A stretch of 64,000 nt of DNA from a virus, in IMG/VR virus record IMGVR_UViG_3300047557_004430, one strand, 5' to 3'. The translations under genes were made by a program, and so were the position numbers. The notes beneath the pieces are model-generated. The model made no database searches. It had not been told where the DNA came from and worked only from the letters and a program-made list of their open reading frames with translations. The stretch's first letter is position 1, and each line of letters starts with the position of its first letter. Positions 2,136 to 59,109 of this stretch are shown piece by piece.

Positions 2136-5100
2136 TGGCTTGTAATTATTACGACTTATACATTGACCCGAACGACATAAACAATGCGGTCAATAATAAT
2201 GCCTACCTTGATTATACTGTATACGTCTCATATTATGATTGTGACGGAAATCTTCAAGTAACAACTTATGGTGCTAGCGGAACATTTACTAATGCATTTT
2301 GTTCTGATACAAGTTACGGTGTAATAACTTTATATTATTATAATACCGACCAGTATTATACTGCGCTTAATAGTAATACAACCGTTGCTGGAAACTGTGG
2401 TACACCAACCCCGACTCCAGCAGTCACAAGTACACCAACACCAACAAATCCTTATGGGTGTTTTTCTATAACTTATCAAAGTACAAATACAATTACAAAT
2501 AATTGCGGTGGTACAAGCTACCCGTATACTTATGAAACTTGGAGAATAAGTTATCTTAATGGTGTTGTGAACCAAAATGTTGGTGTAATGTGGGAATATT
2601 ACATCAATGACCCATGTGGTTCGAGTGGACCTGTAGGAGTAACAGCAACAATTTTACAAGGGAACTCTTACGTAGATGTTATCTTAGATACATCTGTATA
2701 CATTGATTGCCCACCTGACCCTACATGTTACGAACAAACAAATTATATGATTGGTATTGTGAGTGCAGATACGTCGTGTTCTGCATTAGCAGTAACTCCA
2801 ACACCAACAACAACAACTACTTTGACTGCCACCCCATCGACAACTCCAGCTGTAACCCCAACGCCAACGACAACAACTACCTTAACATCAACACCAACCC
2901 CAACAAATAACACTTCAATATGGCTTGGAACCGTAAATAATTACAATGACTCCTCCTCAGCCTGCGCAAACTATAGTACTTCAAGAAGTTTCTACGCAAA
3001 TCCTGGTAACAACTGGGGGTTGATTTCGAATGTTACAAGATTTTATGACGATGTATTCTTAACAACTCCGACTAATGGTGGAAATAAGTGGTATGGTGTA
3101 ACTAGAATGGGTGACCCAAACACTATCTATGCAATACAGATTGATACTAACGGTTATCTTATAAATTATACATCTTGTCCTACACCAACACCACAACCTA
3201 CTCAAACCCGTACTCCTGATGCAACGCCTGCTGTAACACCTACACAGACAAGGACACCAACAACAACTCCTACAGCTACTCAATTTACTCAATACACATC
3301 CGCAACAACTTGTAACACATTAATACAATCAAGTGCTTGGGGAGGCTCAGGGGGAAGAGGAATCTATACAATAACAGTTGATGTAGGTAATGGTACAGGT
3401 AATATGACCTTAACCTATGATGCACAAACAATACCTGATAGATTTCAGGTTTATTGGAATAATATACTTCAGATAGATACTGGATTTGTTTCCGATTGTT
3501 GGCCAAGTAGTTGTTCAAGTTATAATTCACAATTAAATGCTTTGGGATATTCCAACGTAAGTGGTCCTAACGGAAGTCAAAGTTTTAATAAAACCTCACA
3601 AAGTCCTTCTGTAATTACAATTGTTGTTACCGCACCTCTAACAAACACGGTTTGGTCAGGGACTCTATCTTGTCCAGCCGATGTGACCCCAACTCCGACA
3701 GCCGCAGTTACCTCCACACCGACACCAACTACAACAACAACTTTAACTGCAACACCTACGCAAACACCAACCACAACGACTACCTTGACCGCTACTCCAA
3801 CTCAAACTCCAACTACAACAACAACTTTAACTGCAACTCCTACACAGACCCCTACTACAACAACTACGTTAACTGCAACACCAACTCAGACTCCAACAAC
3901 TACAACAACACTTACGGCTACCCCAACACAAACATCTACACAAACTCCTACAACCACAACTACGCTTACTGCAACGCCGACTCAAACCCCAACAACAACT
4001 ACTACTTTAACAGCCACTCCGACTCAAACCCCAACAACTACTACAACTTTAACTGCAACGCCGACTCAAACCCCAACCACAACTACTACTTTAACAGCCA
4101 CTCCGACTCAAACCCCAACAACAACCACAACTTTAACTGCAACGCCAACTCAAACTCCCACACAGACTCCAACTACAACTACTACGTTGACTGCAACGCC
4201 AACTCAAACTCCCACACAAACACCAACTACAACTACTACGTTGACTGCAACGCCAACCCAAACTCCAACACAGACTCCAACAACAACTACAACTCTTACT
4301 GCGACTCCAACCCAAACTCCAACACAGACTCCAACTACAACTACTACGTTGACTGCAACCCCTACTCAAACTCCGACACAAACACCTACAACAACTACAA
4401 CTCTTACTGCAACCCCAAGTGAGACCCCAACCCAAACACCTACAACAACAACTACTTTAACATCTACGCCAGCAGAAACTCCTACACAGACTCCGACTAC
4501 CACAACAACACTTACCGCAACACCGACTCAGACAGCAACACAGACCCCAACGACAACCACAACCCTTACTGCAACAGCTACACAGACACCTACATCTCAA
4601 TTGACCCCAACTCCAACAAGTACACCTACACAAACAAACACACCGTCAAATAGTCCAACTCCTGCAATTACATCTACTCAAACTTCTACACCTACACAAA
4701 CCAATACCCCATCAAATAGTCCAACACCAAGTATTACTGCTAGCCCAACAAATACTCCAACACAAACAAACACCCCTTCTAATTCGGCTACACCACAAAT
4801 AACAACTACTCCGACTCAAACACCAACCACAACAACTACTTTGACTGCAACACCAACACAAACAAATACTCCTTCTAATAGTCCATCACCAAGTATTACC
4901 GCTAGTCCAACAACTACTCCAACACAAACAAACACGCCATCAAATTCACCAACTCCATCCATCACATTATCACCAACACCTACAACTACAACCACTCTCA
5001 CCGCAACTGCCACCCAAACTCCAACTACAACGACCACACTTACCTCAACTCCAGCTCAAACAAGTACACCCACACCTACCACAACAACGACTTTAACTGC

Positions 5101-6199
5101 AACTCCGAGTCAAACTCCAACTAACACTCCGACTACTACTACAACTTTGACCTCAACACCTACGCCTACAGATACACCATCAATTACAGAAACCCCAACA
5201 CCATCACCAACTACGACTACAACGATATCTGCAACCCCGAGTCAAACACCAACGTTAACCATGACTCCAACTACAACAACAACCCTGACTGCAACACCTA
5301 CCAACACACCAAGTCCAACACCTACAAACCATCCTGTTGAATTCGCGGCAAACGGATTTTTCTACGAACCATCAACAGGAAATCTCTATGCAACTACTGA
5401 CGAGACAATAAGAGTTACATTCAGCGGTGCATCCGTTGGCGTTAATTTTTTAAATCCTACTCAAATTATTTTTACAGCAGCAATTGCTCAGAGAGGACTT
5501 AAATTCATTGGACTCGAGTCAGGCAATTCAAATTTCTCTTTAGCCTCGGATTCTGATGGTGTAGTTTATAAGGTAAACGTACCTGCTGCCTCTATAAGTG
5601 TAACATCTTTTGATTCGGCTTCGGGAGGAACTGTATCAAATAACACGATTAATTTTACAGGTAATGGGGTCAATACAAGTGTTACTATTCCTGAAGTTTA
5701 TTTCACAAACGGTACGTTATCATCAAACAGAATTGTTTCAGTGGGACCATATTCCATTACTTTCGGAGGACAAGGGTCTTCAATATTCAAAGTTGTAAAT
5801 ACGACTGGAAATGCATTCGAAACGGGAACTTCTAATGGAATCAACTTCTATGTTGATTATCAAGGAGGTGTATATGCCACATCAAAATCGTTCTGGATTA
5901 ATAACCCAATTAAAAATGGTTACAAGTTAAGACATGGGTCTTTAGAAGGACCTGAGAACGGAGTTTACTTTAGAGGTAAAACAGATTTAGACAAAATTGA
6001 AATACCTCAAGAATGGAGTTGGTTGGTGGATTTTGATTCAATCACTGTTTCATTAACATCAACTTGTGGTGATGAATTATATGTAGAATCAATCACAGAC
6101 CTTTGGATTAAAGTCGGTGGGGTTGACTGTGAATACTTCTATGTAATAAATGGTGAAAGAAAAGATATTGACGATTTGAATATCGATTTAATAGGTTAA
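2135..6199 (+). CDS. Large virion surface protein: Cys-rich modules, mucin-like Thr-Pro stalk, fibre C-terminal domain
   Basis: 1354 aa; TPTTTTTLTATPTQ repeats; C-terminal ATSKSFWINN..LRHGSLEGPENGVYFRG. Confidence 0.8.
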   Translation: MACNYYDLYIDPNDINNAVNNNAYLDYTVYVSYYDCDGNLQVTTYGASGTFTNAFCSDTSYGVITLYYYNTDQYYTALNSNTTVAGNCGTPTPTPAVTSTPTPTNPYGCFSITYQSTNTITNNCGGTSYPYTYETWRISYLNGVVNQNVGVMWEYYINDPCGSSGPVGVTATILQGNSYVDVILDTSVYIDCPPDPTCYEQTNYMIGIVSADTSCSALAVTPTPTTTTTLTATPSTTPAVTPTPTTTTTLTSTPTPTNNTSIWLGTVNNYNDSSSACANYSTSRSFYANPGNNWGLISNVTRFYDDVFLTTPTNGGNKWYGVTRMGDPNTIYAIQIDTNGYLINYTSCPTPTPQPTQTRTPDATPAVTPTQTRTPTTTPTATQFTQYTSATTCNTLIQSSAWGGSGGRGIYTITVDVGNGTGNMTLTYDAQTIPDRFQVYWNNILQIDTGFVSDCWPSSCSSYNSQLNALGYSNVSGPNGSQSFNKTSQSPSVITIVVTAPLTNTVWSGTLSCPADVTPTPTAAVTSTPTPTTTTTLTATPTQTPTTTTTLTATPTQTPTTTTTLTATPTQTPTTTTTLTATPTQTPTTTTTLTATPTQTSTQTPTTTTTLTATPTQTPTTTTTLTATPTQTPTTTTTLTATPTQTPTTTTTLTATPTQTPTTTTTLTATPTQTPTQTPTTTTTLTATPTQTPTQTPTTTTTLTATPTQTPTQTPTTTTTLTATPTQTPTQTPTTTTTLTATPTQTPTQTPTTTTTLTATPSETPTQTPTTTTTLTSTPAETPTQTPTTTTTLTATPTQTATQTPTTTTTLTATATQTPTSQLTPTPTSTPTQTNTPSNSPTPAITSTQTSTPTQTNTPSNSPTPSITASPTNTPTQTNTPSNSATPQITTTPTQTPTTTTTLTATPTQTNTPSNSPSPSITASPTTTPTQTNTPSNSPTPSITLSPTPTTTTTLTATATQTPTTTTTLTSTPAQTSTPTPTTTTTLTATPSQTPTNTPTTTTTLTSTPTPTDTPSITETPTPSPTTTTTISATPSQTPTLTMTPTTTTTLTATPTNTPSPTPTNHPVEFAANGFFYEPSTGNLYATTDETIRVTFSGASVGVNFLNPTQIIFTAAIAQRGLKFIGLESGNSNFSLASDSDGVVYKVNVPAASISVTSFDSASGGTVSNNTINFTGNGVNTSVTIPEVYFTNGTLSSNRIVSVGPYSITFGGQGSSIFKVVNTTGNAFETGTSNGINFYVDYQGGVYATSKSFWINNPIKNGYKLRHGSLEGPENGVYFRGKTDLDKIEIPQEWSWLVDFDSITVSLTSTCGDELYVESITDLWIKVGGVDCEYFYVINGERKDIDDLNIDLIG
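3697..5330 (+). repeat. Coding Thr-Pro tandem array (14-aa/42-bp then 18-aa/54-bp units, then TPTQTNTPSNSP variants)
   Basis: Directly visible in the translation; boundaries approximate. Confidence 0.9.
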
Positions 6200-6870
6200 T
6201 CTCTATTATCAATAAAAATCATAATTTCTCTATAATAAGGTATAAATTCAGGATTCCAAACTTGCCAAGTTATATCAATTCCATCAAATGAAAGAACTTT
6301 GAAATTCGGAAATACTCTTAGGTAGACATCTCTGAATATTTTGAATTTTTCTTTCATCCAATCATCTCCTAAGTGCCACTCACCTGCAATTTTTCTAACA
6401 TTATTTTTAATCCAAAATAAATTTTCTATGGTGAAAATATCGTATTCCCCTGTTTCACAATCGGTTTTAAGGAAGTCTATCTTTTGTATATTATAATCCT
6501 CTATGACCTTTTTAAATGTGGTTGAATATAGTTTTTGATTCTCAGTTTTTTCAAATACAAACCCGAAATCAAACTCACCTACTTTATCGGAGATACCCTT
6601 GTTAATATGAGTTACGTTTCCATGCCTAGTATTATATACTAAAGTTTTAAACTCTTCATAACTTGGTTCGAAAGCAAAAACCTGTGATGGATTCTTATGT
6701 AAGATTGAAAATGTGAATGGACCAAGACTGGCACCAATATCAAAAACTACGTCACCTTCTTCAACTTCAAAATACCTTTCGTAAATTTTATCTTCAAAAA
6801 TTTCTCTTGTTACTGTCTCTCTGAAACCATCATAACATTTTGGTTCCCATTTAAATTGTTCTAAATTCAT
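6196..6870 (-). CDS. FkbM-family SAM-dependent methyltransferase
   Basis: VVFDIGASLGPFT, VFAFEPS and IDFLKTDCETGEYDI motifs. Confidence 0.85.
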   Translation of the reverse strand: MNLEQFKWEPKCYDGFRETVTREIFEDKIYERYFEVEEGDVVFDIGASLGPFTFSILHKNPSQVFAFEPSYEEFKTLVYNTRHGNVTHINKGISDKVGEFDFGFVFEKTENQKLYSTTFKKVIEDYNIQKIDFLKTDCETGEYDIFTIENLFWIKNNVRKIAGEWHLGDDWMKEKFKIFRDVYLRVFPNFKVLSFDGIDITWQVWNPEFIPYYREIMIFIDNRD

Positions 6871-9800
6871 TTTAATAAATTTTGTATTTTATCTATAACC
6901 ATCTGTGACGTGATTGACTTATGGCATTCAAACTGCCTTTCAGTTCCTTTGTGAACAGGACACCAATTCCAATCCCCTTTGTCGAACTTGAATTCAGGGT
7001 TGTTCCAACATCCATTACAAACGAGTGGATTTGTGATTCTGATACAATCCAAGTTGAACTCGTGGTCAGGTGTTGTGAAATTGCTTATCATAACAACCTT
7101 CTTTCCCATACCCCAAGACAACCAAGATAATCCGCTTGATAAACCGATGAAAAATTCACTATGATGAATTACATTCATTGTGTTTTCAATCGACACATCT
7201 TTAATCTTAGTTACATTCTGAAAATCATTATCTTCTTTTGAAACGTTGACTACCCTATAACCTTGAGAAACAAGGTAATTGATTAGTTCTTGCCACCCCT
7301 CCTTTGTCCAAAATTTACAGCCAGCAGTTGAGTTTGTCGCTATCGTAACATACTTCCCATCATAAGGTTTTTGTGAAATATGATAATCAATTCTTGGTTT
7401 GATTTCACTATAATCCAAACCTAATATGTTGGTTGCAGCTTTTTGCAATGGAATTGTATTTGGAACTTCAGGTTCTTTGTCTTTATTCCAAAACCAACCA
7501 AGCTTGTACATACCATGAATGTTATGGACAACACTTCCTGGTTCTACAAACTGCAGCTCAGGATAAACTTTTTTGAATAGTTTGTTCCAAAAAGTTGATA
7601 CAATTACATCACACTTATGTTTGTTTTTAAATTCTAAACAATAAGGAATCCAAGCAATTGAATCACCCAAAGATTTACTATCAAATGATATAAAGACTCT
7701 CTGTCCTTCATAATTCAAAGTTCTATCTAAAACTAAGGTCTTATCATCATAAACTTTTGTTCTCCATCTTGTAAAATATTGTCTATTAAGTTTAATCCAC
7801 GAATTTACAGGTAATGTGTTTTCATAATGAATTACACCTTTCTCATCGAAGAATTGAATTTTGAATTTGGAAGTTGAATCACCTTTCAATTCGAGATATG
7901 GTTGTTCAATATAATATTGAGTTATATGTAAGTTTGAAGGAATTCTATTTTGTGGAATTACATTAATTTCTTTAACCTTTTTGTAAAAGTCTATGTGGTC
8001 CTTAGCAAATTTTTCAACACTATTATTTGGTGTAACAGAGTTCTTCTTTTTAGAAAATAATGAAACTAGTTGGTCTTTTATTTTTACAACGTCAGAACTT
8101 TCAATAGGGGTAATGTATTCTGTAAACATGTCGAAATATTGAGGAAGATTTCTTGCTAATATTTGTAAACCAAAAGAAGCTGCTTCTCTTAAAACAATTG
8201 GATTACATTCCCATGTTGAGTTGAACATGAGAATATCTGACGCTTTCATAAACTCATCGATATCTTCTCTTTCACCCCAAACTTTAACATTGGAAGGTAA
8301 GTTTTTCATAATTGGTCCCCAATAATTTTCAAAGTTGGATGCTTGATTACCAACAAAATGGAATTGTACGTGAGGGTTTGATTGTTCAATAAGTCTCGCA
8401 ACTTCAACACCCTCCCCTTGATTCTTACCTTCAGTCCACAACCCGACGTTCAGAACGTGAACTTTGTCGATATCCAGTCCCAATTTTTGTTGAGATACCA
8501 TTTGTTCAAATGAAGTTCTTGATTTGTTTTCGATTGGAAACTCAAAAACCTGTTTCAAAGTCTCAACATCTTTAAATTGAACTCTATCATGGTATGGAGT
8601 ACAGAAAGCAAATCCATCAGGAACAAACGAAATATTTTTTGGGTCGAACCATATGTTGTGGCATGTTTCAACAACACGCCAAGTTCTTGAGTTATCGAAA
8701 AGAGCGTTCAATACATTTTTTGAGATTTTGTTAAAACTATCGAATCCTTCAGGTATTTCGTCAATGTGTACTATATCAATTGAATTCTTTTTAATTATCT
8801 CAATCAACTTCATGGAGTTTTCCTCGGAATGGTTGTCCAAGTTATTGAGTGTCCAAAATCTATCTTCAGGTATTAGTAACTTAATTTTGTTTCTTTGAAC
8901 AACGTAAGTTGTTGCGTATAGACAAAACTCTACCACATACAAATCAATATCAGGATAATATTTTAATATTGATTCAATCCTTTTCAGTAAATAAGATGGC
9001 ATTCCACCTGTTGAAAGGTGAGGGGCAAAAAATAAAACTTTCAACTTTTTGTTTTGTTTATTTTTAATTTTTTTGACCATTTCTCTCATCTTTTGTGGAT
9101 TTTTTTCACCGTGGAAAAACAATAAATGAGATAAATCCTGAGGAGCTCTTAACCAATCACCAAAAAAATTGAATTCATTCGGTCCTTTGTATTCAATCTC
9201 ATCATACATTTTATCAACTATATCGACACTTCCGTTAACATATATGTAAGGTAAACCTTGGTGGATATGATTTTTCCAAAGAAGAACATTAACAATTGTT
9301 TCTTCGTTGAATGGTGCGTAATGATTGATATTCTTCCAAATTTTTGGGTGGTTACACATCCAATACCACTCATCGATGAAATCTGTTGTTTTTTGACCAG
9401 CAACAAAATAACCTGTCTGTCTATAAAACTTTCTTATGGTTTGGTCAACACCGAATAATTTACATGCATTGTATTCCAAAGTAGATTCCCAATCTCCACC
9501 ATGTTGGGGTCCTCCACCGCCTTTCCCATATAGGGTCATATATTCATAGATACCCTCCACAAAATATGGGAATGAAGAATCTTTATCAAATAAAGAAAAT
9601 ATCTTGTCTACGTTAGGAGTTGCAACAGAGTCACTATCAACATAACAAACGGTTTCGGCGTGCTTAGAAAGAGCGTCTTTAATTATTAAAGGTCTTTGAA
9701 TTAAAATTTTGTAGATATCAGAGTTTCTTCTGTCTATGTAAAAATTATCATTTTCTTTTGTGTAACAATTATCTGATAAATTTTGAAGTGAACAATCCCA

Positions 9801-10664
9801 CCTGATAGTCCTTGTGTTAGATACCTCAACCACTTTGTCTGAATTCAACATGTAAACTATAATAGGTAGTTGACTGAATTCTCTGATTGACCTTACTGAT
9901 TCGTTTATGATATCGAAATAATTTTCGGTTGAATATAAAACATATGCTTTAGGGAACTTGAGGGCATTGAAATAGTTTTGTTCCATTTCTTTTTCGTAGT
10001 TTTGATGTTGTCCTTCATTGTCTGAAAAACTTTCAGATTGTGAAAAAACCATAGGTATTGTTATACCAAAGTTAAATTTTTTATGTTTCGGGGAGTGAAT
10101 AAACCTGTATTTTTCTGATGAACAATCGTTCAAAAACATATCTATTGTGCATTTGAATAACCAATGGTCTGACTTTAAAAAATTGGATAAGTGAGAATAT
10201 GTGTGTTCAATTATATTTCTTCTATAATAAAGAGATTGGCAACATAACATCTCTTCGAAAGAACCATGAGTTTCACCATTAACGTTTATCTTACTTCTTG
10301 GTAACAACTTTGTCCCCAAAGCAACTAAGTCATAGCTGTTTTTGATTTCATCCCAATCATTAAAAATTTTATTTAAATCACGTTTGTTAACATTATCGAT
10401 TAATTTAATATCATCTTCAAACACAATTAGGTCTTGGTCGTCAGACTTTAACACCTCCTCGAAAATTTTCAAAAAAGAAGCCGTACTTCCAAGTTTTTTA
10501 AACTCAGGTTCTTCCATCATCACTCCTTCAAAAATTTCATATCCTGTAAATCCCAATTCATCCAAAAGCCTTGTGGAGCTTTCCAGTCTATCAGTTCTGT
10601 GTGGTAGGTTTATTATGTAACCCCTATCTGCAATTTTTTTTCCTTTATAGAAGAGACCTTTCAT
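6867..10664 (-). CDS. Multidomain glycosyltransferase: GT25-like + GT-A (DxD) + GT4-like + Aah/TibC-type protein O-heptosyltransferase domain
   Basis: GYIINLPHRTDRL and IVFEDD; VCYVDSD; FFAPHLSTGGMPSYL, NQGEGVE, DILMFNSTWECNPIVLREAASFGL; VFISFDSKSLGDSIAWIPY, FFIGLSSGLSWLSWGMGKKVVMIS, CNGCW..WCPVH..FECHKSI. Confidence 0.85.
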   Translation of the reverse strand: MKGLFYKGKKIADRGYIINLPHRTDRLESSTRLLDELGFTGYEIFEGVMMEEPEFKKLGSTASFLKIFEEVLKSDDQDLIVFEDDIKLIDNVNKRDLNKIFNDWDEIKNSYDLVALGTKLLPRSKINVNGETHGSFEEMLCCQSLYYRRNIIEHTYSHLSNFLKSDHWLFKCTIDMFLNDCSSEKYRFIHSPKHKKFNFGITIPMVFSQSESFSDNEGQHQNYEKEMEQNYFNALKFPKAYVLYSTENYFDIINESVRSIREFSQLPIIVYMLNSDKVVEVSNTRTIRWDCSLQNLSDNCYTKENDNFYIDRRNSDIYKILIQRPLIIKDALSKHAETVCYVDSDSVATPNVDKIFSLFDKDSSFPYFVEGIYEYMTLYGKGGGGPQHGGDWESTLEYNACKLFGVDQTIRKFYRQTGYFVAGQKTTDFIDEWYWMCNHPKIWKNINHYAPFNEETIVNVLLWKNHIHQGLPYIYVNGSVDIVDKMYDEIEYKGPNEFNFFGDWLRAPQDLSHLLFFHGEKNPQKMREMVKKIKNKQNKKLKVLFFAPHLSTGGMPSYLLKRIESILKYYPDIDLYVVEFCLYATTYVVQRNKIKLLIPEDRFWTLNNLDNHSEENSMKLIEIIKKNSIDIVHIDEIPEGFDSFNKISKNVLNALFDNSRTWRVVETCHNIWFDPKNISFVPDGFAFCTPYHDRVQFKDVETLKQVFEFPIENKSRTSFEQMVSQQKLGLDIDKVHVLNVGLWTEGKNQGEGVEVARLIEQSNPHVQFHFVGNQASNFENYWGPIMKNLPSNVKVWGEREDIDEFMKASDILMFNSTWECNPIVLREAASFGLQILARNLPQYFDMFTEYITPIESSDVVKIKDQLVSLFSKKKNSVTPNNSVEKFAKDHIDFYKKVKEINVIPQNRIPSNLHITQYYIEQPYLELKGDSTSKFKIQFFDEKGVIHYENTLPVNSWIKLNRQYFTRWRTKVYDDKTLVLDRTLNYEGQRVFISFDSKSLGDSIAWIPYCLEFKNKHKCDVIVSTFWNKLFKKVYPELQFVEPGSVVHNIHGMYKLGWFWNKDKEPEVPNTIPLQKAATNILGLDYSEIKPRIDYHISQKPYDGKYVTIATNSTAGCKFWTKEGWQELINYLVSQGYRVVNVSKEDNDFQNVTKIKDVSIENTMNVIHHSEFFIGLSSGLSWLSWGMGKKVVMISNFTTPDHEFNLDCIRITNPLVCNGCWNNPEFKFDKGDWNWCPVHKGTERQFECHKSITSQMVIDKIQNLLK

Positions 10665-44166: not shown

Positions 44167-45006
44167 ATGTTAAGTTATATAGGTGGAAAATCAAAAATCG
44201 GTAAATGGATAGTGGATTACTATCTCAGAGACATGGAAACGTATGTAGAAACATTCGGTGGAATGTTTTGGTGTTTCTTTAATATGGACTTGGGACAATT
44301 CCCAAATCTAAAGAGAGTTGTCTACAATGACTTCAATCCTCTAAATTACAATCTGTTTCAATGTGTTCAGAATCCATCTGAACTACAAAGAGCGCTTGAC
44401 GCAATACCAGTACAACAACGTGGGGTATATGTGACTGATTTTAGTTACAAAGATAGGTTTAGAGAGTATCAGACAGAACTATTTTCATCAGGATTCACCA
44501 TAAATTATCCTGATTATGAAGTTGCTGCGAAATACGTTTACGTTGTGACCCAAGTATTCAGTGGTAGTAAACCTGAAACATCATCATTCATAGACCTAAA
44601 GGGGGAATACCGTTCAAAGTATCTTACATTTAGAGATAAGCTTTCTAAACCAAGTTGGGTTGAACATTTTACCAAAATCTCACATGTAGAAAATATGGAT
44701 TTTCAAGAGGTAATTGAAAAGTATGACTCACCTTCGACTTATATCTACTTAGACCCACCTTATTGGAAAACTGAAAACTATTATTCTAACCACGATTTTG
44801 ATAGGGCTGACCACGAAAGACTTGCAAACTGTCTCAATTCTGTTCAAAGTAAATTTAGTCTATCATATTATGATTTTGATTTATTACACGACTGGTACCC
44901 CGAAGATAGATTCAGATGGGAGAAAAAAGAATTTGCTAAAGCGGCAGCGGCAAAAAAAGGTGTAAAACAAAATATGGGCGAAGAGCTTTTGATATTGAAT
45001 TATTAG
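44167..45006 (+). CDS. dam: Dam-family DNA adenine methyltransferase
   Basis: YIGGKSK, YVETFGG, VVYNDFN, IYLDPPY. Confidence 0.9.
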   Translation: MLSYIGGKSKIGKWIVDYYLRDMETYVETFGGMFWCFFNMDLGQFPNLKRVVYNDFNPLNYNLFQCVQNPSELQRALDAIPVQQRGVYVTDFSYKDRFREYQTELFSSGFTINYPDYEVAAKYVYVVTQVFSGSKPETSSFIDLKGEYRSKYLTFRDKLSKPSWVEHFTKISHVENMDFQEVIEKYDSPSTYIYLDPPYWKTENYYSNHDFDRADHERLANCLNSVQSKFSLSYYDFDLLHDWYPEDRFRWEKKEFAKAAAAKKGVKQNMGEELLILNY

Positions 45007-46669: not shown

Positions 46670-46701
46670 TTTGGCAGTTTGATTCGAGGTGATTATCTTT
46701 G
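46670..46701 (+). promoter_or_regulatory. Bacteroidota sigma70 promoter TTTG-N20-TATCTTTG
   Basis: TTTG at 46670-73, TATCTTTG at 46694-701, ATG at 46721. Confidence 0.7.
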
Positions 46702-46720
46702 TAATCTAAATCAGTCAAAT

Positions 46721-47476
46721 ATGTTAACACTCGAAACTCTCCGTAATCTAACTCCGTCAGTATTCTCTACGTCTCCATCTCCAAAGATGTCCAACAAGTA
46801 CACCTTCGTTCCTACGATTGAAATTCTTGAAAATTTCGACCGTGAGGGTTGGAAGGTATACTCAGCGAAACAATTGGGTGGTGGTCAGTTCTCAAGCCAC
46901 GAGCTTCGTCTCCGTAACGGTGATTTACCACAGGTTGGTGATTCACTTGTCGAGGCGGTTATCAGAAACTCTCATAATGGTATGAGCACGTTTTCTGTAA
47001 GTGCAGGTCTTTTCCGACTTGTATGTTCTAATGGTCTCACAGTCCCAACTTCAGTTGCGGATGCAATCACTGTGAAGCACATGAAAGTTGATATGGGTGC
47101 TGTTAGAATGATTACAGACGAATTTGCAGACCGTCTCCCTGTTATTCAAAGGTCAGTTGGTCGTATGGAGTCAACCACCCTCAATGAAGAAAGAACTATG
47201 GACCTTTTGTCCAAGGCGTCTTTGATTCGTTGGGAAAAAGGTTCTGTTCCATCGACACTAAAACTAACTGACTTGATTTCTCCTGAGAGAAACGAAGACC
47301 AAGGGAATTCAGTTTGGAAGGTATTCAATGTAATCCAAGAGAAATTTGTTCGTGGAGGTACTCAGTACCAATCCAAGAGAGGTCGATTGGTGACTATGAA
47401 AGAACTCAAAAACTTTCAGAACATCAATAAGATTAACACGAACCTTTGGGAGTTAGCGGAGTCTTACTGTGTTTAA
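46721..47476 (+). CDS. DUF932-family protein
   Basis: NSHNGMSTFSVSAGLFRLVCSNGL, VWKVFNVIQE, LWELAE. Confidence 0.85.
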   Translation: MLTLETLRNLTPSVFSTSPSPKMSNKYTFVPTIEILENFDREGWKVYSAKQLGGGQFSSHELRLRNGDLPQVGDSLVEAVIRNSHNGMSTFSVSAGLFRLVCSNGLTVPTSVADAITVKHMKVDMGAVRMITDEFADRLPVIQRSVGRMESTTLNEERTMDLLSKASLIRWEKGSVPSTLKLTDLISPERNEDQGNSVWKVFNVIQEKFVRGGTQYQSKRGRLVTMKELKNFQNINKINTNLWELAESYCV

Positions 47477-47478
47477 TT

Positions 47479-47505
47479 GAAGGGGGTTTACCCCCTTCTT
47501 TTTTT
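47479..47505 (+). terminator. Rho-independent terminator
   Basis: GAAGGGGG-ttta-CCCCCTTC followed by a T-run. Confidence 0.85.
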
Positions 47506-47509
47506 ATTC

Positions 47510-47517
47510 TATATTTG
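47510..47517 (+). promoter_or_regulatory. Bacteroidota-type -7 box TATATTTG
   Basis: 4 nt before ATG 47522. Confidence 0.5.
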
Positions 47518-47521
47518 TTTT

Positions 47522-49141
47522 ATGAGCAACGAAATTTTCAAAATAAGTTTTGCCAAACATCATTCTGAGAAGTTCAGAGATGCCACATCTTTGGATGACC
47601 CTGATACCCAGTTATACTTAACTGACTACTCACCAAAACATCCATATTTTACTCGTGAAAAAGTATTCACGGATGAGCAAACATTTGTAGATAATTTTGG
47701 TAATCCGATGTATTCTGTTCAGAGAGAGCACCTTATGGTTGTAATTGAAGAGAAGGAAGAAAAAATTTCACTTAAAATTTTTTGGGGAGGTAAGGATAGA
47801 AGAGTTGGAAAGACTTGGTTCAGAAGAACTAAAAACGTTGAGTTTTTGACTGTGAACAGAAAGACAGGGGATTTTTATTTTGGTTACCTCCACAACTATC
47901 AAAAAAAGAGAAAGTTTACCAAATCGATTAGAAGAAATTATTTCTTAGGAAAACCTGTTTCTTCCACATTTGCCAAGTTAAAAAATATTCTCAATTTATA
48001 TCATCCTAATCCCTCTGAAATTTTATTTGAGGTTTCATCCAAATTTTTGAATAACATCTGTCCTGAACATATTGGTATGGACAGTGACCAAAGGTTGATG
48101 AAGTTTTATTTGGATAAAAAGGGTTTTAAATATCCAAATAACTTTTGGGTCTTCTCTGAATTTATGTGGGGTAAAGACTACAGAAAAGTACTCAAAAAGA
48201 ACCAACATAGGATTGTTGATACATTTATGCAACTTTGGGGAATCAAAGGAAAGAAGGTAAAAAAATATCTTCACGAAATCGATTCAATTAATATCGCCAC
48301 TTATAAATTTGCTAATGAACTTTTCGGTGACGACTGGATAAATCAAGACGGAGATTTTATCAAAACTGTCTTGAGTTATACACCACAAACTTTCAAAGTT
48401 CCTGAAAATTTCAAAAGCGGTATGTCCATGGAGGAACTCAGAAGAGTCTATTCTTCATTCAAAGAAACAATCAGCGGTGATTATCTCAATGCATGGACAT
48501 TCCAAGACCATATCAACACATACTCAAAGCTCAAGGATTACGGTGAGACAGAGCTAAAATGGTTAACAGATGGTACCGATTTCAAAAAGTTCCAAGAGGA
48601 ACACTATTTGTGGTCTGAAAAACTAGACCACTATCGAAAGGGAAGTTACACAAGAACATACCCTCAATATTTTTATGACTCTATTGAAAAAGAGATTGAT
48701 GGGTATTTTCCTGTTATTCTGAAAAGTAGCGAAGAATATAACAAAGAAAGTTACATTCAACAAAACTGTGTTAAGGGTTATATTGGAAGGGTAAGTTCAA
48801 TGATTATATCATTAAGGAAAGGTGACCCTGAATCTGAAACTAGGGCTACTATCGAATATAGAATAGTTTATCTCGAAAATCTCGACAAAATACATGTCGA
48901 TAGAGTCCAAACACTTGGTAAATACAATCAACGTTTGGATGAAACTTGGAATGAAGTTCTATTTAAATTAGACGAAATTGTGTTATCTTGCCATCAAGAA
49001 AAAAACTTCGAACCAGTGAAAATATCGAAGTTGTGTGCAAATGGTACACTATTAGAGTCTGAGTCACATTTCGATGAAAGTGGAAATTTGACTTGGACAA
49101 ATAAAAAACATAAAGTAGAATCATATTACGACGAATGGTAA
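47522..49141 (+). CDS. PcfJ-like domain protein
   Basis: C-terminal LKSSEEYNKESYIQQNCVKGY..IISLRK..RATIEY..QTLGKYN. Confidence 0.65.
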   Translation: MSNEIFKISFAKHHSEKFRDATSLDDPDTQLYLTDYSPKHPYFTREKVFTDEQTFVDNFGNPMYSVQREHLMVVIEEKEEKISLKIFWGGKDRRVGKTWFRRTKNVEFLTVNRKTGDFYFGYLHNYQKKRKFTKSIRRNYFLGKPVSSTFAKLKNILNLYHPNPSEILFEVSSKFLNNICPEHIGMDSDQRLMKFYLDKKGFKYPNNFWVFSEFMWGKDYRKVLKKNQHRIVDTFMQLWGIKGKKVKKYLHEIDSINIATYKFANELFGDDWINQDGDFIKTVLSYTPQTFKVPENFKSGMSMEELRRVYSSFKETISGDYLNAWTFQDHINTYSKLKDYGETELKWLTDGTDFKKFQEEHYLWSEKLDHYRKGSYTRTYPQYFYDSIEKEIDGYFPVILKSSEEYNKESYIQQNCVKGYIGRVSSMIISLRKGDPESETRATIEYRIVYLENLDKIHVDRVQTLGKYNQRLDETWNEVLFKLDEIVLSCHQEKNFEPVKISKLCANGTLLESESHFDESGNLTWTNKKHKVESYYDEW

Positions 49142-50895: not shown

Positions 50896-53829
50896 ATGGG
50901 TGATATATTAATAGTTCCAAGTAATACGTTAGCTCCTCAACCTGACCGAATACCTTATATTAACTGGGTCAACAATAGTACCAGTAATTGGAAAGTCGTA
51001 TCTGGCTCGACAATTAACATCAGTGCTCCTGCTCAAACAAATACACTTTCGGTACAGATTTCTAACCTTATTATTTCAGTTGTTGCCTTGAATGTAAGAA
51101 ACAACTTCACCATCAATGGTATTCAAGTTATTGACGGGACAGCAAATTGGATTGGACCTGATACAGGTATTGCTGGGGCTCAAGGGGCTACAGGTGCTCA
51201 AGGAGCCCAAGGTGCTCAAGGAGCCCAAGGTGCTCAGGGTTCAGTTGGTGCTCAGGGTGCTACTTCAGGAGCACAGGGAGCCACAGGTGCTCAAGGGGCA
51301 ACAGGAAGTACAGGGGCTCAAGGTAATACAGGAGCACAAGGAAATACAGGACCACAAGGAGCCACAGGTAATACAGGGGCACAAGGAGCCACAGGTAATA
51401 CGGGGGCTCAAGGTAATGTGGGGGCTCAAGGTAACACAGGAGCTCAAGGTGCTGTGGGTTTGACTGGGGCTCAGGGTTCAACAGGAGCACAGGGACATAC
51501 AGGAGCTCAAGGAGCCACAGGTACTACAGGTGCTCAAGGACCTACGGGAGCTCAAGGTAATGTGGGACCAACAGGTGCGGTAGGACCAACAGGAGCCCAA
51601 GGTTCGACAGGTGCACAAGGTGCGGTAGGTCCAACAGGAGCGGTAGGTAATACAGGTGCTCAAGGTCCGACAGGTGCACAAGGTAACGTAGGACCAACAG
51701 GTGCAGTAGGACCTACAGGAGCTCAAGGTTCGACAGGTGCACAGGGAAATACAGGAGCTCAAGGAGCCACAGGTAATACAGGTGCTCAAGGTCCAACAGG
51801 TGCACAAGGTAACGTGGGACCGACAGGGGCGGTAGGACCAACAGGAGCCCAAGGTTCCACAGGAGCACAAGGACATACAGGAGCACAGGGCGCCACAGGA
51901 AACACAGGAGCCCAAGGACCGACAGGTGCACAAGGTAACGTTGGTCCAACAGGTGCGGTAGGACCGACAGGGGCTCAAGGTTCTACAGGTGCTCAGGGAC
52001 ACACAGGAGCTCAAGGAGCCACAGGTAATACAGGAGCTCAAGGACCAACAGGTGCTCAAGGCAATGTTGGACCAACAGGTGCTGTAGGACCAACAGGAGC
52101 ACAAGGTTCTACAGGTGCTCAAGGTTTTGTAGGACCAACAGGTGCAGTAGGACCAACAGGAGCACAAGGTTCCACAGGTGCTCAGGGTGCCGTAGGACCA
52201 ACAGGTGCCGTAGGACCAACAGGCGCTCAAGGTTCCACAGGGGCTCAAGGTAATACAGGAGCACAAGGTGCTGGTGGTGGTGCAGGAGCGACAGGTTCAC
52301 AAGGAGCCACAGGTAATACAGGAGCACAAGGTGCTGCAGGTGGAGGTGGAGCGACAGGTTCACAAGGAGCCACAGGTAACACAGGAGCACAGGGTGCTGG
52401 TGGCGGTGCAGGTTCAACAGGTGCTCAAGGAGCCACAGGTAATACAGGTGCTCAAGGTGCTGCGGGAGGTGGTGGAGCGACAGGTTCACAAGGAGCTACG
52501 GGACACTCAGGGGCACAAGGTGCTGGTGGTGGTGCAGGTTCAACTGGTGCTCAAGGAGCCACAGGACACTCAGGAGCGCAGGGTGCTACGGGAGGTGCGG
52601 GAGCAACAGGTTCACAAGGTGCAACAGGACATCCAGGTGCACAAGGTGCGACAGGTTCACAAGGTGCAACAGGAGCTCAAGGAGCCACAGGACATTCAGG
52701 AGCACAAGGGGCTGTAGGGCCAGGTGGAGCCCAAGGTTCTCAAGGAGCTACAGGACATTCAGGAGCACAAGGTGCGGGTGGAGCAACAGGTTCACAAGGA
52801 GCTCAGGGTGCCACAGGTCACTTTGGAGCTCAAGGGGCTTTAGGTCCAGGTGGAGCACAGGGTTCTCAGGGTGCCACAGGTCACTTTGGGGCTCAAGGGG
52901 CTGGTGGAGCTACAGGTTCCCAAGGTGCTCAAGGAGCTACAGGACATTTTGGTGCTCAAGGGGCTGTAGGGCCAGGTGGAGCTCAAGGTTCTCAAGGAGC
53001 CACAGGACATCCAGGAGCACAAGGTGCGGGTGGGGGCACAGGTTCTCAAGGTGCACAAGGTGCCTTTGGTGGTTATGGACCACAAGGTGCACAAGGAAGC
53101 CAAGGTTCTCAAGGTGCAGTAGGTGGTAATGGGCCTCAAGGTGCTCAAGGAGCACAAGGTGCTGGAGGTTACCAAGGTAATTCAGGTGCTGGTGGTAACA
53201 CTGGTGCACAAGGTGCTCAAGGACCTACAGGTCCAACGGGACCTGCTTCATGTTCGTGTTACGCACACCTAATCAATTATAACTGTAGTTCATATTATTA
53301 CGCTTGCCAAACAGGTTTGTGTGGCTCAGCTTCCGTTTATGCTTGTGACGCATTATGGGATGGATGTTACGGTATTCAACTATACCAAGACAGTGGATGT
53401 TCTTCTAATTTTGGTGGGGGTGGAATTAGCGCAAGACAGGGTTCAGCATGTGCTGGAAGCATTAGTGGAGGATATTACACATACGGTTATTTATGTTCTG
53501 ATAGAAGACTCAAGAAAAATATAGTCACTTTAGAAAATTCATTGAAAAATATACTTCAAATTGATACTGTAGAGTTCGATTGGAATGAAAAACTAACAGA
53601 CGGAAAGTATAGAGATTTCAAAGGATTGAAAAAAATCCATTCAGTTGGTCTAATTGCACAAAATGTTAAAAAATTCTATCCAACGGTTGTTAAAACAAAT
53701 CATGAAGGATACTATTATGTTGAATACATAAAACTCAACGCGGTTTTAGTTGAAGGTATAAAAGAACAACAAGTATTTATTGATGATATAGAAAATCAGA
53801 TAAAAGAATTAGAAAGTAAATTTATATAA
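50896..53829 (+). CDS. Collagen-like fibre 1 with Cys-rich tip and peptidase S74 chaperone
   Basis: G-X-Y repeats 51166-53247; [24 protein letters not shown]. Confidence 0.9.
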
Positions 53830-56477
53830 TGCCGACTAACGTAATCATATATCCTAACGGTCTTGCTGGTGGTAACACAAACCCTCACGCAGTTTTTGAG
53901 GATTCTGGTGGTTCAAGAATTCAGTTGAACGTAGGGACCGACGGAATAATTGTTGTATCATCAACGACAAATTCCAATATAGTTACTTTAGGTTCAACAA
54001 TAACTGCAAGTGGAAGTTCTGTAACAGGGACAGGAAAAGCTGTATATGTTGGTGGTGTTAAAATGATTGAATCTGATGGTACATGGGCAGGTCCTAAAGC
54101 AGGAATATCAGGTGCTACAGGTTCTCAAGGTGCTTCAGGGGCAACAGGTTCACAAGGAGCAACAGGGGCACAAGGACCTCAGGGTGCTCAAGGTGGTCAA
54201 GGAGCTCAAGGAGCACAGGGTTCACAAGGAGCCAAAGGCGGTCAAGGGGCACAAGGTGGTCAAGGTGCTCAAGGGGCACAAGGTGGTCAAGGTGCTCAGG
54301 GAGCCCAAGGTGCAAATACAGGAGCTCAAGGTGGACAAGGAGCCCAAGGTGGACAAGGAGCCCAAGGAGCTCAAGGTGCAAACACAGGTGCCCAAGGTGC
54401 TACAGGTAACACAGGAGCTCAAGGAGCTCAGGGTGCTCAAGGTGCAAGTACGGGAGCTCAAGGAGGTCAAGGAGCTCAAGGAGGTCAAGGAGCTCAGGGT
54501 GCTCAAGGAGGACCAACAGGGGCTCAGGGTGCAACAGGAAGTACAGGAGCCCAAGGTGCTCAGGGAGCACAAGGTGGAACGACAGGTGCTCAAGGTGGTC
54601 AAGGTGCTCAAGGTGGTCAAGGGGCTCAAGGTGCTCAGGGAGGTCCAACAGGGGCTCAAGGAGCTACAGGTAATACAGGTGCTCAGGGTGCTCAAGGAGC
54701 TCAGGGGGCAAGTACAGGGGCACAAGGTGGTCAAGGAGCTCAGGGTGGTCAGGGTGCTCAAGGTGCTCAGGGAGGTCCAACAGGTGCACAAGGAGCTACA
54801 GGTAATACAGGAGCCCAAGGTGCTCAAGGAGCCCAGGGAGCTAGTATAGGAGCCCAAGGAGGTCAAGGTGCTCAAGGAGGTCAGGGTGCTCAAGGTGCTC
54901 AAGGAGGTCCAACAGGGGCTCAAGGAGCTACAGGTAACACAGGAGCCCAAGGTGCTCAAGGAGCACAGGGGGCAAGTATAGGAGCCCAAGGAGGTCAAGG
55001 TGCTCAAGGAGGTCAGGGTGCACAGGGAGCACAAGGGGGAACAACAGGTGCTCAGGGAGCCACAGGAAATACAGGTGCACAAGGTGCTCAGGGAGCACAG
55101 GGTGGAACAACGGGTGCTCAAGGAGCTACAGGTAACACTGGGGCTCAGGGAGGTCAAGGTGCACAAGGTGGAACGACGGGTGCTCAAGGCGCTACAGGTA
55201 ACACAGGAGCCCAAGGAGCTCAGGGAGCTCAGGGAGCAAGTACGGGTGCTCAGGGAGCAACAGGTGCTCAAGGTAATACAGGTGCTCAGGGAGCCCAAGG
55301 TGCAAGTACTGGTGCTCAAGGTGCTACAGGAGCTCAAGGTAACACAGGTGCCCAAGGAGCTCAGGGTGCAAGTACAGGAGCTCAAGGGGCAACAGGAGCT
55401 CAGGGAGCTCAAGGTGCTCAGGGAGCCCAAGGTGCCAGTACTGGTGCTCAAGGTGCTACGGGAGCCCAAGGTAACACGGGTGCACAAGGAGCACAGGGTG
55501 CAAGTACAGGAGCCCAAGGAGCTACGGGTGCTCAGGGAGCTCAAGGTTCTCAAGGAGCCCAAGGAGCGAATACGGGGGCTCAAGGTAATACAGGTGCCCA
55601 AGGTAATACAGGTGCGCAAGGAGCCCAAGGAGCGAATACGGGGGCTCAAGGTAATACAGGTGCTCAAGGTGCTCAAGGTTCTCAAGGTGCCCAAGGGGCA
55701 AGCCAAGGTGCTCAAGGTGCTGGTGGTAACACAGGTGCTCAGGGTTCACAAGGTGCTCAGGGAGGTAACACAGGTGCACAAGGAGCTACAGGTGCTCAAG
55801 GTGCTCAGGGTTCTCAAGGTGCCCAAGGGGCAAGCCAAGGTGCTCAAGGTGCTGGTGGTAACACAGGTGCTCAGGGTTCACAAGGTGCTCAGGGAGGCAA
55901 CACAGGTGCACAAGGAGCTACAGGTTCTCAAGGTGCTCAAGGAGCACAAGGTACTTACACAGGTGTCCAAGGTTCTCAAGGAGGTGGAGGCTCTCAAGGA
56001 GCACAAGGAAGTCCATCAGGTGTACAAGGTGCTCAAGGTGCGACAGGGTCACAAGGACCTCAAGGTGGTCAAGGTTCTCAAGGTGGACAAGGTGCTCAAG
56101 GTGCTCAGGGTTCTACTGGTCCAACAGGTCCCCCTTCAGACCAAAGATTGAAAGACAATATCAAACCTTTAAGTGACGTAATCAATAAAATTAAGTCGAT
56201 TGAAGGTGTTAAGTTTGAGTGGTTAGACCATCCAAAAATTAAAAAAGACCCGAATATTGCACTGCCTTACGCTTTCGAGGGAGGTTCAGTTGGTTTCATT
56301 GCTCAAGACTTAGAAAAAATTGTTCCTGAAGTGGTATGGACAGATGAGGAAGGTTTCAAATCAGTAGATTATGATTCAATGGTTGCCTTTGGTATTGGTG
56401 CGATAAAAGAACAACAAGTAAGAATTGAAAAAATTCTTCAAAGAATAAATTCATTGAAAGAAAAATTAAATGGCTGA
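53829..56477 (+). CDS. Collagen-like fibre 2 (periodically interrupted) with peptidase S74 chaperone
   Basis: Repeats 54102-56135; [24 protein letters not shown]. Confidence 0.9.
54309..55904 (+). repeat. 66-bp/22-aa periodic array: G-X-X-X tetrad plus six G-X-Y triplets
   Basis: Tetrad 1 at 54309 (GANT) and tetrad 25 at 55893 (GGNT), exactly 24 x 66 bp apart. Confidence 0.9.
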
Positions 56478-59109
56478 AGATATAATAATAACCCCTGGTA
56501 GTGGTCAGATAGATTTTCAAGACACAGGTAATACCTCAACGTTACTCGTTGTCTCGAGTGGTACCTTGCAATGGAAAAGAGGTGCTACAACTTATCTAAC
56601 TTGGAATCCAGCAGCACCAACTTTCAGAGTTAGTGACGCTGACTTAAGACTTACTACTAAACTTGTAAATAATGCTTTAGACCCATTAATCAATTCTACA
56701 GGATGGCTCGGTAATCCTGAACCAACAGGTTCTCAAGGTGCCCAAGGTGCTAAAGGATTTACAGGTTTTTCAGGAGCCACAGGAGCCACAGGAACTCAAG
56801 GAGCCGTAGGACCAACGGGTGCTAGTGGAGCCACTGGTTCCCAAGGTGCGGTTGGTTCACAAGGAGCAGTTGGAGCTCAAGGCTCTGGTGGAGCTACAGG
56901 TTCTCAAGGTGCGCAAGGGGGTCAAGGAGCCCAAGGAGCAGTTGGGGCACAGGGTAATACTGGCTCACAAGGTGCTCAAGGAGGTCAAGGTGCCCAAGGT
57001 GCTCAAGGAACTCAAGGAGCACAAGGTGCTACAGGTTCCCAAGGAGGTCAGGGTTCTCAAGGTGCAGTCGGGGCTCAAGGAAATACAGGTTCACAAGGTT
57101 CACAAGGGGGACAAGGTGCTCAAGGAGCTCAAGGAGGACAAGGAGCCCAAGGAGCTACAGGTTCTCAAGGAGGTCAAGGAGCCCAAGGAGCAGTTGGAGC
57201 TCAAGGCAACACAGGTTCACAAGGTTCTCAAGGAGGACAAGGAGCACAGGGAGCCCAGGGTGGTCAAGGTGCTCAAGGTGCTACAGGCTCTCAAGGAGGT
57301 CAAGGAGCACAGGGGGCTGTTGGAGCACAGGGTAACACTGGCTCACAAGGTTCACAAGGAGGACAAGGTGCTCAAGGTGCACAGGGTGGACAGGGAGCAC
57401 AAGGTGCTGTAGGTTCACAAGGAGGACAGGGTGCACAAGGTGCTAAAGGTTCTCAGGGTGCAACAGGCAGCCAAGGTTCTCAAGGTGGTCAGGGTGCTCA
57501 AGGTGCACAGGGTGGACAGGGAGCACAAGGTGCTGTTGGTTCTCAAGGAGGACAAGGTGCTCAAGGTGCTGTTGGTTCACAAGGTGCAACAGGGAGCCAA
57601 GGTTCACAAGGTGGTCAGGGTGCTCAAGGTGCACAGGGTGGACAAGGGGCACAAGGTGCTGTTGGTTCACAAGGAGGACAAGGTGCTCAAGGTGCACAGG
57701 GTGGACAAGGAGCACAAGGTGCTGTAGGTTCACAAGGTGGTCAGGGTGCTCAAGGTGCACAGGGTGGACAAGGGGCACAAGGTGCTGTAGGTTCACAAGG
57801 GGGTCAAGGAGCCCAAGGTGCTCAAGGTTCTCAGGGGGGACAAGGTGCTCAAGGAGCTCAGGGGGGACAAGGTGCCCAAGGTGCTCAAGGTTCTCAGGGG
57901 GGACAAGGAGCCCAAGGTTCTCAAGGCGGACAAGGTGCTCAAGGAGCCCAAGGTTCACAAGGGGCTAAAGGTGCTCAAGGTTCTCAAGGGGGTCAAGGAG
58001 CCCAAGGTGCTCAAGGTTCACAAGGGGGTCAAGGTGCTCAAGGTTCACAAGGGGGTCAAGGAGCCCAAGGTGCTCAAGGTTCTCAAGGTGCGAAAGGGGG
58101 TCAAGGTGCTCAGGGAGGACAAGGTGCTCAGGGAGGACAAGGTTCACAAGGTGGTCAAGGAGCTCAAGGTTCAACAGGAGGTCAAGGAGCTCAGGGAGGA
58201 CAAGGTGCTCAAGGAGGTAAGGGAGCCACAGGTCCTACAGGAGGACAGGGTGCACAAGGTTCACAAGGTGGTCAAGGTGCTCAAGGGGCACAAGGACCAG
58301 GTGGTGGACAAGGTGCTCAAGGAGCCAAAGGAGGTCAAGGAGCACAAGGAGCCCAAGGACCAGGAGGAGGACAGGGTGCACAAGGTTCACAAGGTGGTCA
58401 AGGTGCTCAAGGGGCACAAGGACCAGGTGGTGGACAAGGTGCTCAGGGAGCCAAAGGAGGACAAGGTGCTCAGGGTTCACAAGGACCAGGTGGAGGACAA
58501 GGAGCCCAAGGTTCACAAGGTGGTCAAGGTGCCCAAGGAGCCCAAGGACCAGGTGGAGGACAAGGTGCTCAGGGAGCCAAAGGAGGACAAGGTGCTCAGG
58601 GTTCACAAGGACCGACAGGGTTCCAAGGGTTTAATGGTGCGACGGGTGCTCAAGGAGCACAAGGTCCAGGTGGTTCAGGAGGGGTACAAGGTGCTCAAGG
58701 TGCCACAGGTGGTGGTGGTCCAACAGGTGGTGGAGGAGGTGGTGGAGCACAAGGTGCTCAAGGAGCTCCTGGCCCAACAGGACCTTCAGGTCCATCGGAT
58801 ATAAGATTCAAAACTAATATTAGACCAATTACAGACGCAATTGAGAAAATATCCAAAATCAGGGGAGTTAACTTCAATTGGAATAATTCTAAGATGAATG
58901 ATGGGTTAGTTGATGTAGGTTTCATTGCACAAGAGCTCCAGTTAGCTTTTCCTGAATTAGTTGCAGGTAAAGAAGATGATGAGAATGTTTTGGTGGTTAG
59001 GTATGAATCTTTAATTGCAGTTTGTTTAGAAGCTATCAAACAACAAAGTGAAATCTTAGATTATAGTGAGAAAAAATTAGATGTATTGGAAAGAAGTTTA
59101 GGAATATAA
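56470..59109 (+). CDS. Collagen-like fibre 3 with peptidase S74 chaperone
   Basis: Uninterrupted G-X-Y 56728-58797; [23 protein letters not shown]. Confidence 0.9.

Follow-up and report, generated by a model that had tools for sequence, protein, structure and literature searches.

A strictly periodic, family-conserved interruption in a phage collagen-like fibre gene whose repeat array co-varies with those of its two neighbours, and its possible role in a heterotrimeric collagen

The 64,000-nucleotide stretch of DNA from IMG/VR virus record IMGVR_UViG_3300047557_004430 (hereafter the window) carries three co-oriented, overlapping genes for collagen-like fibre proteins across positions 50896-59109, which we designate F1, F2 and F3. 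In the middle gene, F2, the regular G-X-Y triplets are interrupted by a G-X-X-X tetrad every 22 residues; we found that this period is kept in diverged orthologues, and that the length and the internal layout of the F2 array follow in most clusters those of the arrays in F1 and F3. On evidence that is computational throughout, we propose that the products of F1, F2 and F3 combine as the chains of a single heterotrimeric collagen, in which each tetrad would form a bulge in one chain, a reading that we regard as evenly poised between right and wrong. A 1:1:1 co-assembly of the chains is suggested, indirectly, by mirrored insertions and deletions, by marks that stand in phase between the genes and by a predicted mixed trimer of the N-terminal domains.

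Splitting the F2 translation into units bore out the first-pass annotation of the window, which had described 25 tetrads of seven types exactly 66 base pairs (bp) apart, followed by two end tetrads after five triplets each. The 25 tetrads (GAST, 7; GANT, GGPT and GGTT, 4 each; GASI, GASQ and GGNT, 2 each) begin at 0-based residues 160, 182 ... 688, corresponding to positions 54309, 54375 ... 55893, and are spaced by 22 residues in every case, and GTYT (55950) and GSPS (56007) follow with a spacing of 19. Altogether F2 contains 189 G-X-Y triplets and 27 units of the G3G type, that is, with three non-Gly residues between two Gly amid regular triplets, and 23 triplets without a break precede the first tetrad. 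The pattern of three successive (G-X-Y)6 + G-X-X-X units is matched 23 times in the window and not once in 100 dinucleotide-preserving shuffles. The DNA autocorrelation, which had been proposed as a check together with a search for the pattern in databases, peaks at 66, 132 and 264 bp in F2 and at 63, 126 and 252 bp in F1 and F3, from which it follows that all three genes run in rows of seven triplets, with one extra codon per row in F2; the F2 array further shows a higher-order alternation of 132 bp. Since the 25 units share a mean DNA identity of 72% (range 58-98%), the array is no fresh amplification. The contrast drawn in the same annotation with neighbouring fibres that have one or no interruption is real, F1 having a single break (GATS) and F3 none, but these neighbours have the same seven-triplet period and are probably partners of F2 rather than independent comparators.

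To search for relatives, IMG/VR was scanned with a residue-blind DNA pattern of three successive units of this kind, which matched at least 120 stretches. Among the matches listed, fibres of the same architecture occur at no fewer than 34 viral loci, with 32 distinct proteins when those of the window and of its relative L001 are counted; they reach up to 37 successive 22-residue spacings and up to 38 modules per protein, and the period-22 gene lies in the middle of a conserved F1-F2-F3 cluster. L001 has the same three-gene cluster and an N-terminal domain 80% identical to that of the window, and its F2 bears 27 tetrads spaced by exactly 22 residues, the first of them at the same residue position as in the window F2. 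The N-terminal domains of the orthologues share 30-50% identity with the window, and in the tree built on these domains the period-22 fibres form one clade (Shimodaira-Hasegawa-like approximate likelihood-ratio test [SH-aLRT] 95) in which 16 rows are period-22 and a single row is plain. Among the F1- and F3-type orthologues from these same contigs, the number of breaks is 0-6. The sole exception in the F2 clade is L062 (IMGVR_UViG_3300046000_012596), which has another layout: its protein with the F2-type N-terminal domain has only four breaks, and a second fibre, truncated at the 5' end, bears 19 period-22 spacings.

In 596 units of the family, each of the six triplets begins with Gly in 100% of cases, and conservation within the unit is strongest in the two triplets that flank the break: these are G-A-Q in about 88% of cases with an entropy of about 0.8 bits, compared to about 2.3 bits for the middle triplets. 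The consensus of the break itself, in percentages, is [G81 S17]-[A44 G30 S14]-[V28 N23 T20 S19]-[T60 Q30], the 17% of breaks with Ser in place of the first Gly being thereby G6G breaks. In L051 and L081 some units consist of five triplets and a 7-residue break, in which the first Gly of the tetrad is exchanged, mostly for Ser, and their length is still 22 residues. The first-pass annotation had taken the period to be deliberate and had named its loss in homologs as the finding that would speak against this; in the sense of a conserved feature the claim stands, as the period is kept in orthologues with strongly diverged N-terminal domains. The array is therefore under selection as a feature of this family of orthologous fibres.

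Protein searches, with a word index (residues 1-160) and with exhaustive phmmer against 1.84 billion representatives, returned generic collagen matches only and no other 22-period array; since the orthologues surfaced only in the DNA pattern scan of IMG/VR, these negative results were misleading. In the 248 other collagen-like proteins that the protein searches retrieved, units of five residues outnumber those of four about fourfold. Eight unrelated metagenomic collagen fibres (P0030, P0045, P0041, P0066, P0107, P0221, P0206 and P0222) have partly periodic G-x-G breaks, with one residue missing, 23 residues apart and up to six in succession, so that breaks near a seven-triplet module may be a wider theme. 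Two long collagen-like proteins, P0151 and P0131, contain the tetrads G-G-A-T, G-S-A-T and G-G-A-S at alternating 85/40-residue or irregular spacings, and it seems that one-residue insertions in microbial collagens often take the form G-[G/S/A]-x-[T/S].

The collagen lengths of the three genes were compared in units, counting a tetrad as one triplet-equivalent and a 7-residue break as two (Table 1). F2 is within 0-2 units of F1 and F3 in 9 of the 11 clusters, over lengths that span 118-306 units, the exceptions being the window and L081. When these two are set aside, the absolute difference averages 1.07 units and does not exceed 2; the mean rises to 8.05 if lengths are taken as residues divided by three, which indicates that the inserted residues are not counted in the matched length. 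In 20000 permutations of the cluster pairing, the median difference never fell to the observed value.

Table 1. Collagen lengths, in units, of the three fibre genes in the window and in related clusters.
Cluster	F1	F2	F3
L001	225	224	223
L011	302	302	303
L066	195	195	194
L102	144	143	142
L063	118	120	118
L037	215	216	
L051		305	306
L024		175	173
L034		169	168
Window	231	217	230
L081	355	315	322

The correspondence extends to the single rows of seven units. The type of row switches at the same rows in all three chains, and the correlations between the row-similarity matrices of the paralogues span r = 0.2-0.84 (at least 0.45 in 12 of 18 pairs); the correlation is highest at zero row shift in most pairs, with a permutation p <= 0.0005 in 14 of the 18 gene pairs. 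In particular, one block has three rows in the window but four in L001, each time in all three genes, which means that the same row change became fixed in three separate genes after the split of close relatives.

Furthermore, the chains bear marks at corresponding levels. When levels are counted from the C terminus, G-G-Q occupies the F3 unit adjoining an F2 break in 170 of 220 cases, and this unit has Gly at X in 79% and an entropy of 1.6 bits, compared to more than 3 elsewhere. The offset between the F3 mark and the F2 break is constant in 7 of 9 clusters, and in the window G-G-Q of F3 adjoins 25 of the 27 F2 breaks; the mark of F1, G-[N/H]-x, is weaker. All three proteins end in a Peptidase_S74 domain (PF13884, hereafter S74), and the linker from the collagen to the motif that opens this domain measures 0 residues in F2 and -1 in F3 in 9 of the 11 clusters, a one-residue offset that corresponds to the stagger of a triple helix.

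It is possible to hypothesize an assembly in which the three C-terminal S74 chaperone domains would gather the chains and, judging from the behaviour of the S74 family, would then be cleaved off, the formation of the triple helix starting from this end. All chains would be made of seven-triplet rows, with one surplus residue per row in F2, at the consensus break [G/S]-[A/G/S]-[V/N/T/S]-[T/Q] between G-A-Q triplets. The surplus residue would loop out as a single-chain bulge that leaves the axial length unchanged, and the Gly at X of the F3 G-G-Q at the same level could accommodate it. The product would be a rod of about 200 nm with a mark every 6 nm or so. The bulges would keep the register of three near-featureless, proline-poor and charge-free chains, and they might also disfavour F2 homotrimers and show a Thr or Gln knob at intervals of about 6 nm.

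Such a mixed helix with bulges would entail that the unit counts match rather than the residue counts, that row changes need mirroring, and that the second chain keeps a side chain missing at the level of the bulge. It would also provide the whole fibre with one head, the F1 domain described below, where otherwise two of three fibres would be headless, and it could make stable a chain that has 1.5% Pro and little charge and is broken every six triplets. A homotrimer of F2, with all three chains broken every six triplets and poor in Pro and charge, is expected to be weak. Moreover, a complex prediction with the N-terminal domains and first eight triplets of F1, F3 and F2, with F2 as the partner, scored 0.81, compared to 0.44 for the best of three controls; the 0.81 mark is reached by 58 of 80 solved complexes and by 2 of 110 mismatched pairs. 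The runs share at least 90% of contacts, and the predicted local distance difference test (pLDDT) of the partner is 84 or higher. The prediction supports the trimerisation of the N-terminal domains, with the limit that close cousins also pass, so that it does not separate a mixed trimer from a homotrimer.

Several points weigh against the heterotrimer, beginning with this lack of discrimination in the complex prediction. Every S74-chaperone fibre that we know of is a homotrimer, and F1 has a domain of about 83 residues between the collagen and S74, which would need to loop out for the S74 domains to meet. The phase relations hinge on the start and the end of the collagen, which are uncertain by 1-2 units, and L034 and L063 are off by one; the in-phase G-G-Q of F3, rather than marking a contact, could be a leftover column of the ancestral repeat, and the F2 tetrads G-G-x-T/Q do resemble G-G-Q with one more residue. 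Finally, two clusters break the length match. The window F2 is shorter than F1 and F3 by exactly two rows (14 units), its distal alternating block comprising two row pairs (55641-56018) against three 14-unit pairs in F1 (52671-53064) and F3 (58239-58613), and L081 is likewise mismatched. As the repeats of the F2 distal block are 90-98% identical, the shortfall may stem from a 132-bp repeat having collapsed during assembly; alternatively, F1 and F3 may have expanded very recently, with F2 yet to follow.

A 14-unit difference would be tolerable if F1, F2 and F3 were separate fibres whose reach had been equalised by selection, with F2 forming its own homotrimer in which the tetrads are three-chain breaks that join 25-38 stiff segments of 6 nm by hinges, kinks or knobs. 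We hold this to be possible, if on the unlikely side. The homotrimeric precedent of the S74 fibres favours it, the conserved G-A-Q flanks would fit a designed hinge too, and an inherited seven-unit pattern of soft spots, visible as G-G-Q in F3 and as the tetrad in F2, might be common to all the fibres; collagen IV becomes locally more flexible where several chains are interrupted at the same point (bioRxiv 10.1101/2020.09.27.315929). However, flexible fibres of equal reach would not need a match anywhere near as close as 0-2 units, and the match holds by units and not by residues. The gains and losses of rows in the same block of all three genes also argue against separate fibres, as does the instability expected of proline-poor, charge-free segments of six triplets between three-chain breaks, and after S74 cleavage two of the three fibres would be left without a distal domain. 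A stand-alone homotrimeric fibre had also been assumed in the first-pass annotation; the lock of unit numbers to the neighbouring genes, the mirrored rows and the in-phase G-G-Q of F3 point elsewhere and suggest a single-chain bulge.

The length lock, the mirrored changes and the phase marks would be explained equally by three homotrimers aligned alongside one another in register, making a rope of triple helices with no mixed helix, and the S74 homotrimers would then be kept. We consider this arrangement improbable, since it adds a level of assembly for which nothing speaks, meets the same problem of stability as the F2 homotrimer, and leaves unexplained why the inserted residues are absent from the length count, unless they bulge out here as well.

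A neutral origin, in which a 3-bp insertion into a 63-bp unit was amplified and the period has no meaning, would agree with the gain and loss of whole 66- or 132-bp units and with base periods of 63 and 66 bp, which suggest a single insertion event. The conservation of the period largely refutes it, and we give it very little credence: the divergence of the N-terminal domains excludes near-identical strains, the period is kept across it although the units of the window have themselves diverged in DNA, the paralogues in the same genomes are unbroken, the flanking triplets are more constrained than the middle ones, and the 22-residue length survives the change to a 7-residue break. Equally remote is a fold with no triple helix, in which runs of 18 G-X-Y residues would be polyproline-II strands and the tetrads turns of a bundle like that of the snow flea antifreeze protein, a fold which, as we know it, the 37% Gly and 1.5% Pro of F2 would suit, but which fits poorly with the 23 and 13 unbroken triplets at the ends of F2, the roughly 230 unbroken triplets and matching unit counts of the paralogues, the trimerising S74 domain directly after the collagen, and the position of the first eight triplets in the interface of the predicted trimer. 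The idea that seven triplets make one supercoil turn of a 7/2 helix was dropped, because imino-poor regions of collagen tend to 10/3 symmetry (PMC7824840).

Returning to the heterotrimer, we tentatively extend it to the family as a whole, which may be one of phages with an obligate A-B-C heterotrimeric collagen. Register and choice of chain might there be set by a periodic knob-in-hole code, made of an extra residue every seventh triplet and an X-position Gly in the second chain, with row changes copied to all three genes, and without stabilisation by Pro, hydroxyproline or charge pairs.

The nearest likeness is with C1q and the other ABC heterotrimeric collagens of animals. C1q too has three tandem paralogous genes (A, B and C) with matched numbers of triplets, its trimer is set by the C-terminal domain, and a break is found in some chains and not in all; in C1q A, a one-residue insertion lies at the bend of the stalk. 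Different from C1q, the system described here is viral, with a putative rod of about 200 nm and 25-38 strictly periodic one-residue insertions in one chain; it lacks hydroxyproline and charge pairs, its C-terminal domain is a presumably self-cleaving S74 chaperone and not gC1q, and its heterotrimer is a proposal.

With the S74 tail fibres and tailspikes of phages (endosialidase type), the three proteins share a C-terminal PF13884 domain that scores above the Pfam cut-off and starts at S-D-x-R-x-K, and the matches of this domain in cultured phages are annotated as tail fibre. In the known S74 fibres, which are homotrimeric, the shaft is beta-helical or of another kind; here it is a very long collagen, and three paralogues are locked in length. 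Among the cultured phages of INPHARED, relatives were found by the S74 domain alone and none beyond it, and blastn of the F2 array against cultured phages returned unrelated collagen genes only.

In the GnG nomenclature, a one-residue insertion such as the F2 tetrad is a G3G break, and the breaks of animal collagens are flanked by K-G-E or K-G-D salt-bridge triplets (PMC11923368). F2 thus resembles interrupted collagens such as collagen IV, in which breaks are tied to flexibility (bioRxiv 10.1101/2020.09.27.315929), but the animal breaks are irregular, and those of F2 are strictly periodic, with G-A-Q flanks and almost no charged residues. The collagen-like tail fibres of Escherichia coli O157:H7 prophages and phages (PMC3368898) and other prokaryotic collagen-like proteins (PMC8968730) likewise have collagen segments that fold by means of flanking trimerisation domains; these proteins are short, are taken as homotrimeric, and have no periodic breaks described. 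In the virophage DSLV2, three successive paralogous genes give a heterotrimeric, non-collagen fibre according to co-purification evidence (PMC12724248), a biochemically supported precedent for the mixed fibre which we propose; the DSLV2 fibre has a gp37-like fold, measures about 16 nm and has no repeat arrays. The first-pass annotation had not recognised the architecture of F2 as a described type of fibre, and our search of the literature agreed with it, yielding no account of a collagen interrupted periodically in this way, nor of a heterotrimeric phage collagen.

To our knowledge, natural heterotrimeric collagens have been described in animals only, and the prokaryotic and viral collagens have been treated as homotrimers. 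New here are the strictly periodic insertion in one chain and its conservation throughout a family, a complementary mark on another chain, and three repeat arrays that have evolved together row by row; such joint evolution of tandem repeats in three genes is by itself unusual. If the mixed helix is true, it would offer a very simple experimental system, with three small genes, no hydroxylation and plausible expression in E. coli, in which to ask how three near-featureless chains pick their partners and hold register over 200 nm, and it would represent a register code without charge pairs, relevant to designed collagen materials. Even if F2 is a homotrimer, its family-conserved periodic one-residue insertions would be a natural model for the effects of interruptions on the mechanics of collagen.

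The features of the three genes are collected in Table 2. The collagen-like part of each protein measures about 680-690 residues, with 1.5-4.3% Pro and 0-1.2% charged residues in the collagen domains; that of F2 has 37% Gly, hardly any charge and 1.5% Pro, and matches the collagen family PF01391 with E = 1.5e-41. F1 has an N-terminal domain of 90 residues and F3 one of 86, and their 231 triplet units and 230 triplets, respectively, are arranged in seven-unit rows. The S74 domains of F1 and F3 score 49.0 and 61.4 bits against the cut-off of 22. In F2 the domain starts with S-D-x-R-L-K directly after the collagen, and the S-D-x-R-x-K motif is common to F1, F2, F3 and their orthologues; autocleavage at the conserved Ser with which the domain opens, and the ensuing loss of the chaperone, are predicted from the family. 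The Cys-rich domain of F1, at 53221-53480 (F1 residues ~781-868), lies between the collagen and S74 and is present in all F1 orthologues with 77-95 residues, and F2 and F3 lack it, so that it would be the sole distal head of the fibre system. The N-terminal domains of the three proteins and the Cys-rich domain matched no family in Pfam and PHROGs.

Table 2. Coordinates of the fibre genes and of the parts of F2 in the window.
Feature	Coordinates	Strand	Remarks
F1 collagen-like fibre gene, 977 residues	50896..53829	+	N-terminal domain, collagen, Cys-rich domain, Peptidase_S74
F2 fibre gene, 882 residues	53829..56477	+	Start overlaps the F1 stop codon
F2 N-terminal domain, 91 residues	53829..54101	+	Defines the orthologous group that holds all period-22 fibres
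F2 leading collagen stretch, ahead of the first complete 22-residue unit	54102..54254	+	
F2 array, 25 units of 66 bp (22 residues), each (G-X-Y)6 + G-X-X-X	54255..55904	+	
F2 degenerate end units, two of 19 residues, five triplets + tetrad (GTYT, GSPS)	55905..56018	+	
F2 C-terminal collagen tail, 13 triplets, no break	56019..56135	+	Leads straight to the S74 motif
F2 Peptidase_S74 intramolecular chaperone domain	56136..56477	+	PF13884, 49.8 bits, cut-off 22
F3 collagen-like fibre gene, 879 residues	56470..59109	+	8-nucleotide overlap with the end of F2

To judge from the PHROG matches, an SbcC-like gene and close IMG/VR relatives whose contigs measure 20-320 kb, the window stems from a large uncultured phage. 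The genes directly upstream of the cluster (46679-49141 and 44167-45006) are non-structural, encoding a DUF932 protein, a PcfJ-like protein and a DNA methyltransferase, and the fibre operon therefore has no obvious tail-module setting. A fourth collagen-like open reading frame lies at the edge of the window (1-1110, + strand, with an open 5' end); it has 69 triplets, matches PF01391 and has no S74 motif. The two open reading frames that follow it, at 1173-2135 and 2135-6199, have in common a C-terminal domain that matches phrog_17490 and phrog_28536. A protein of 1265 residues encoded at 6867-10664 on the minus strand contains three glycosyltransferase regions, one GT25-like, one of GT4 type and one of GT9 type. 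The animal collagen galactosyltransferases belong to GT25, and this protein is a candidate for the glycosylation of the Thr-rich collagen fibres.

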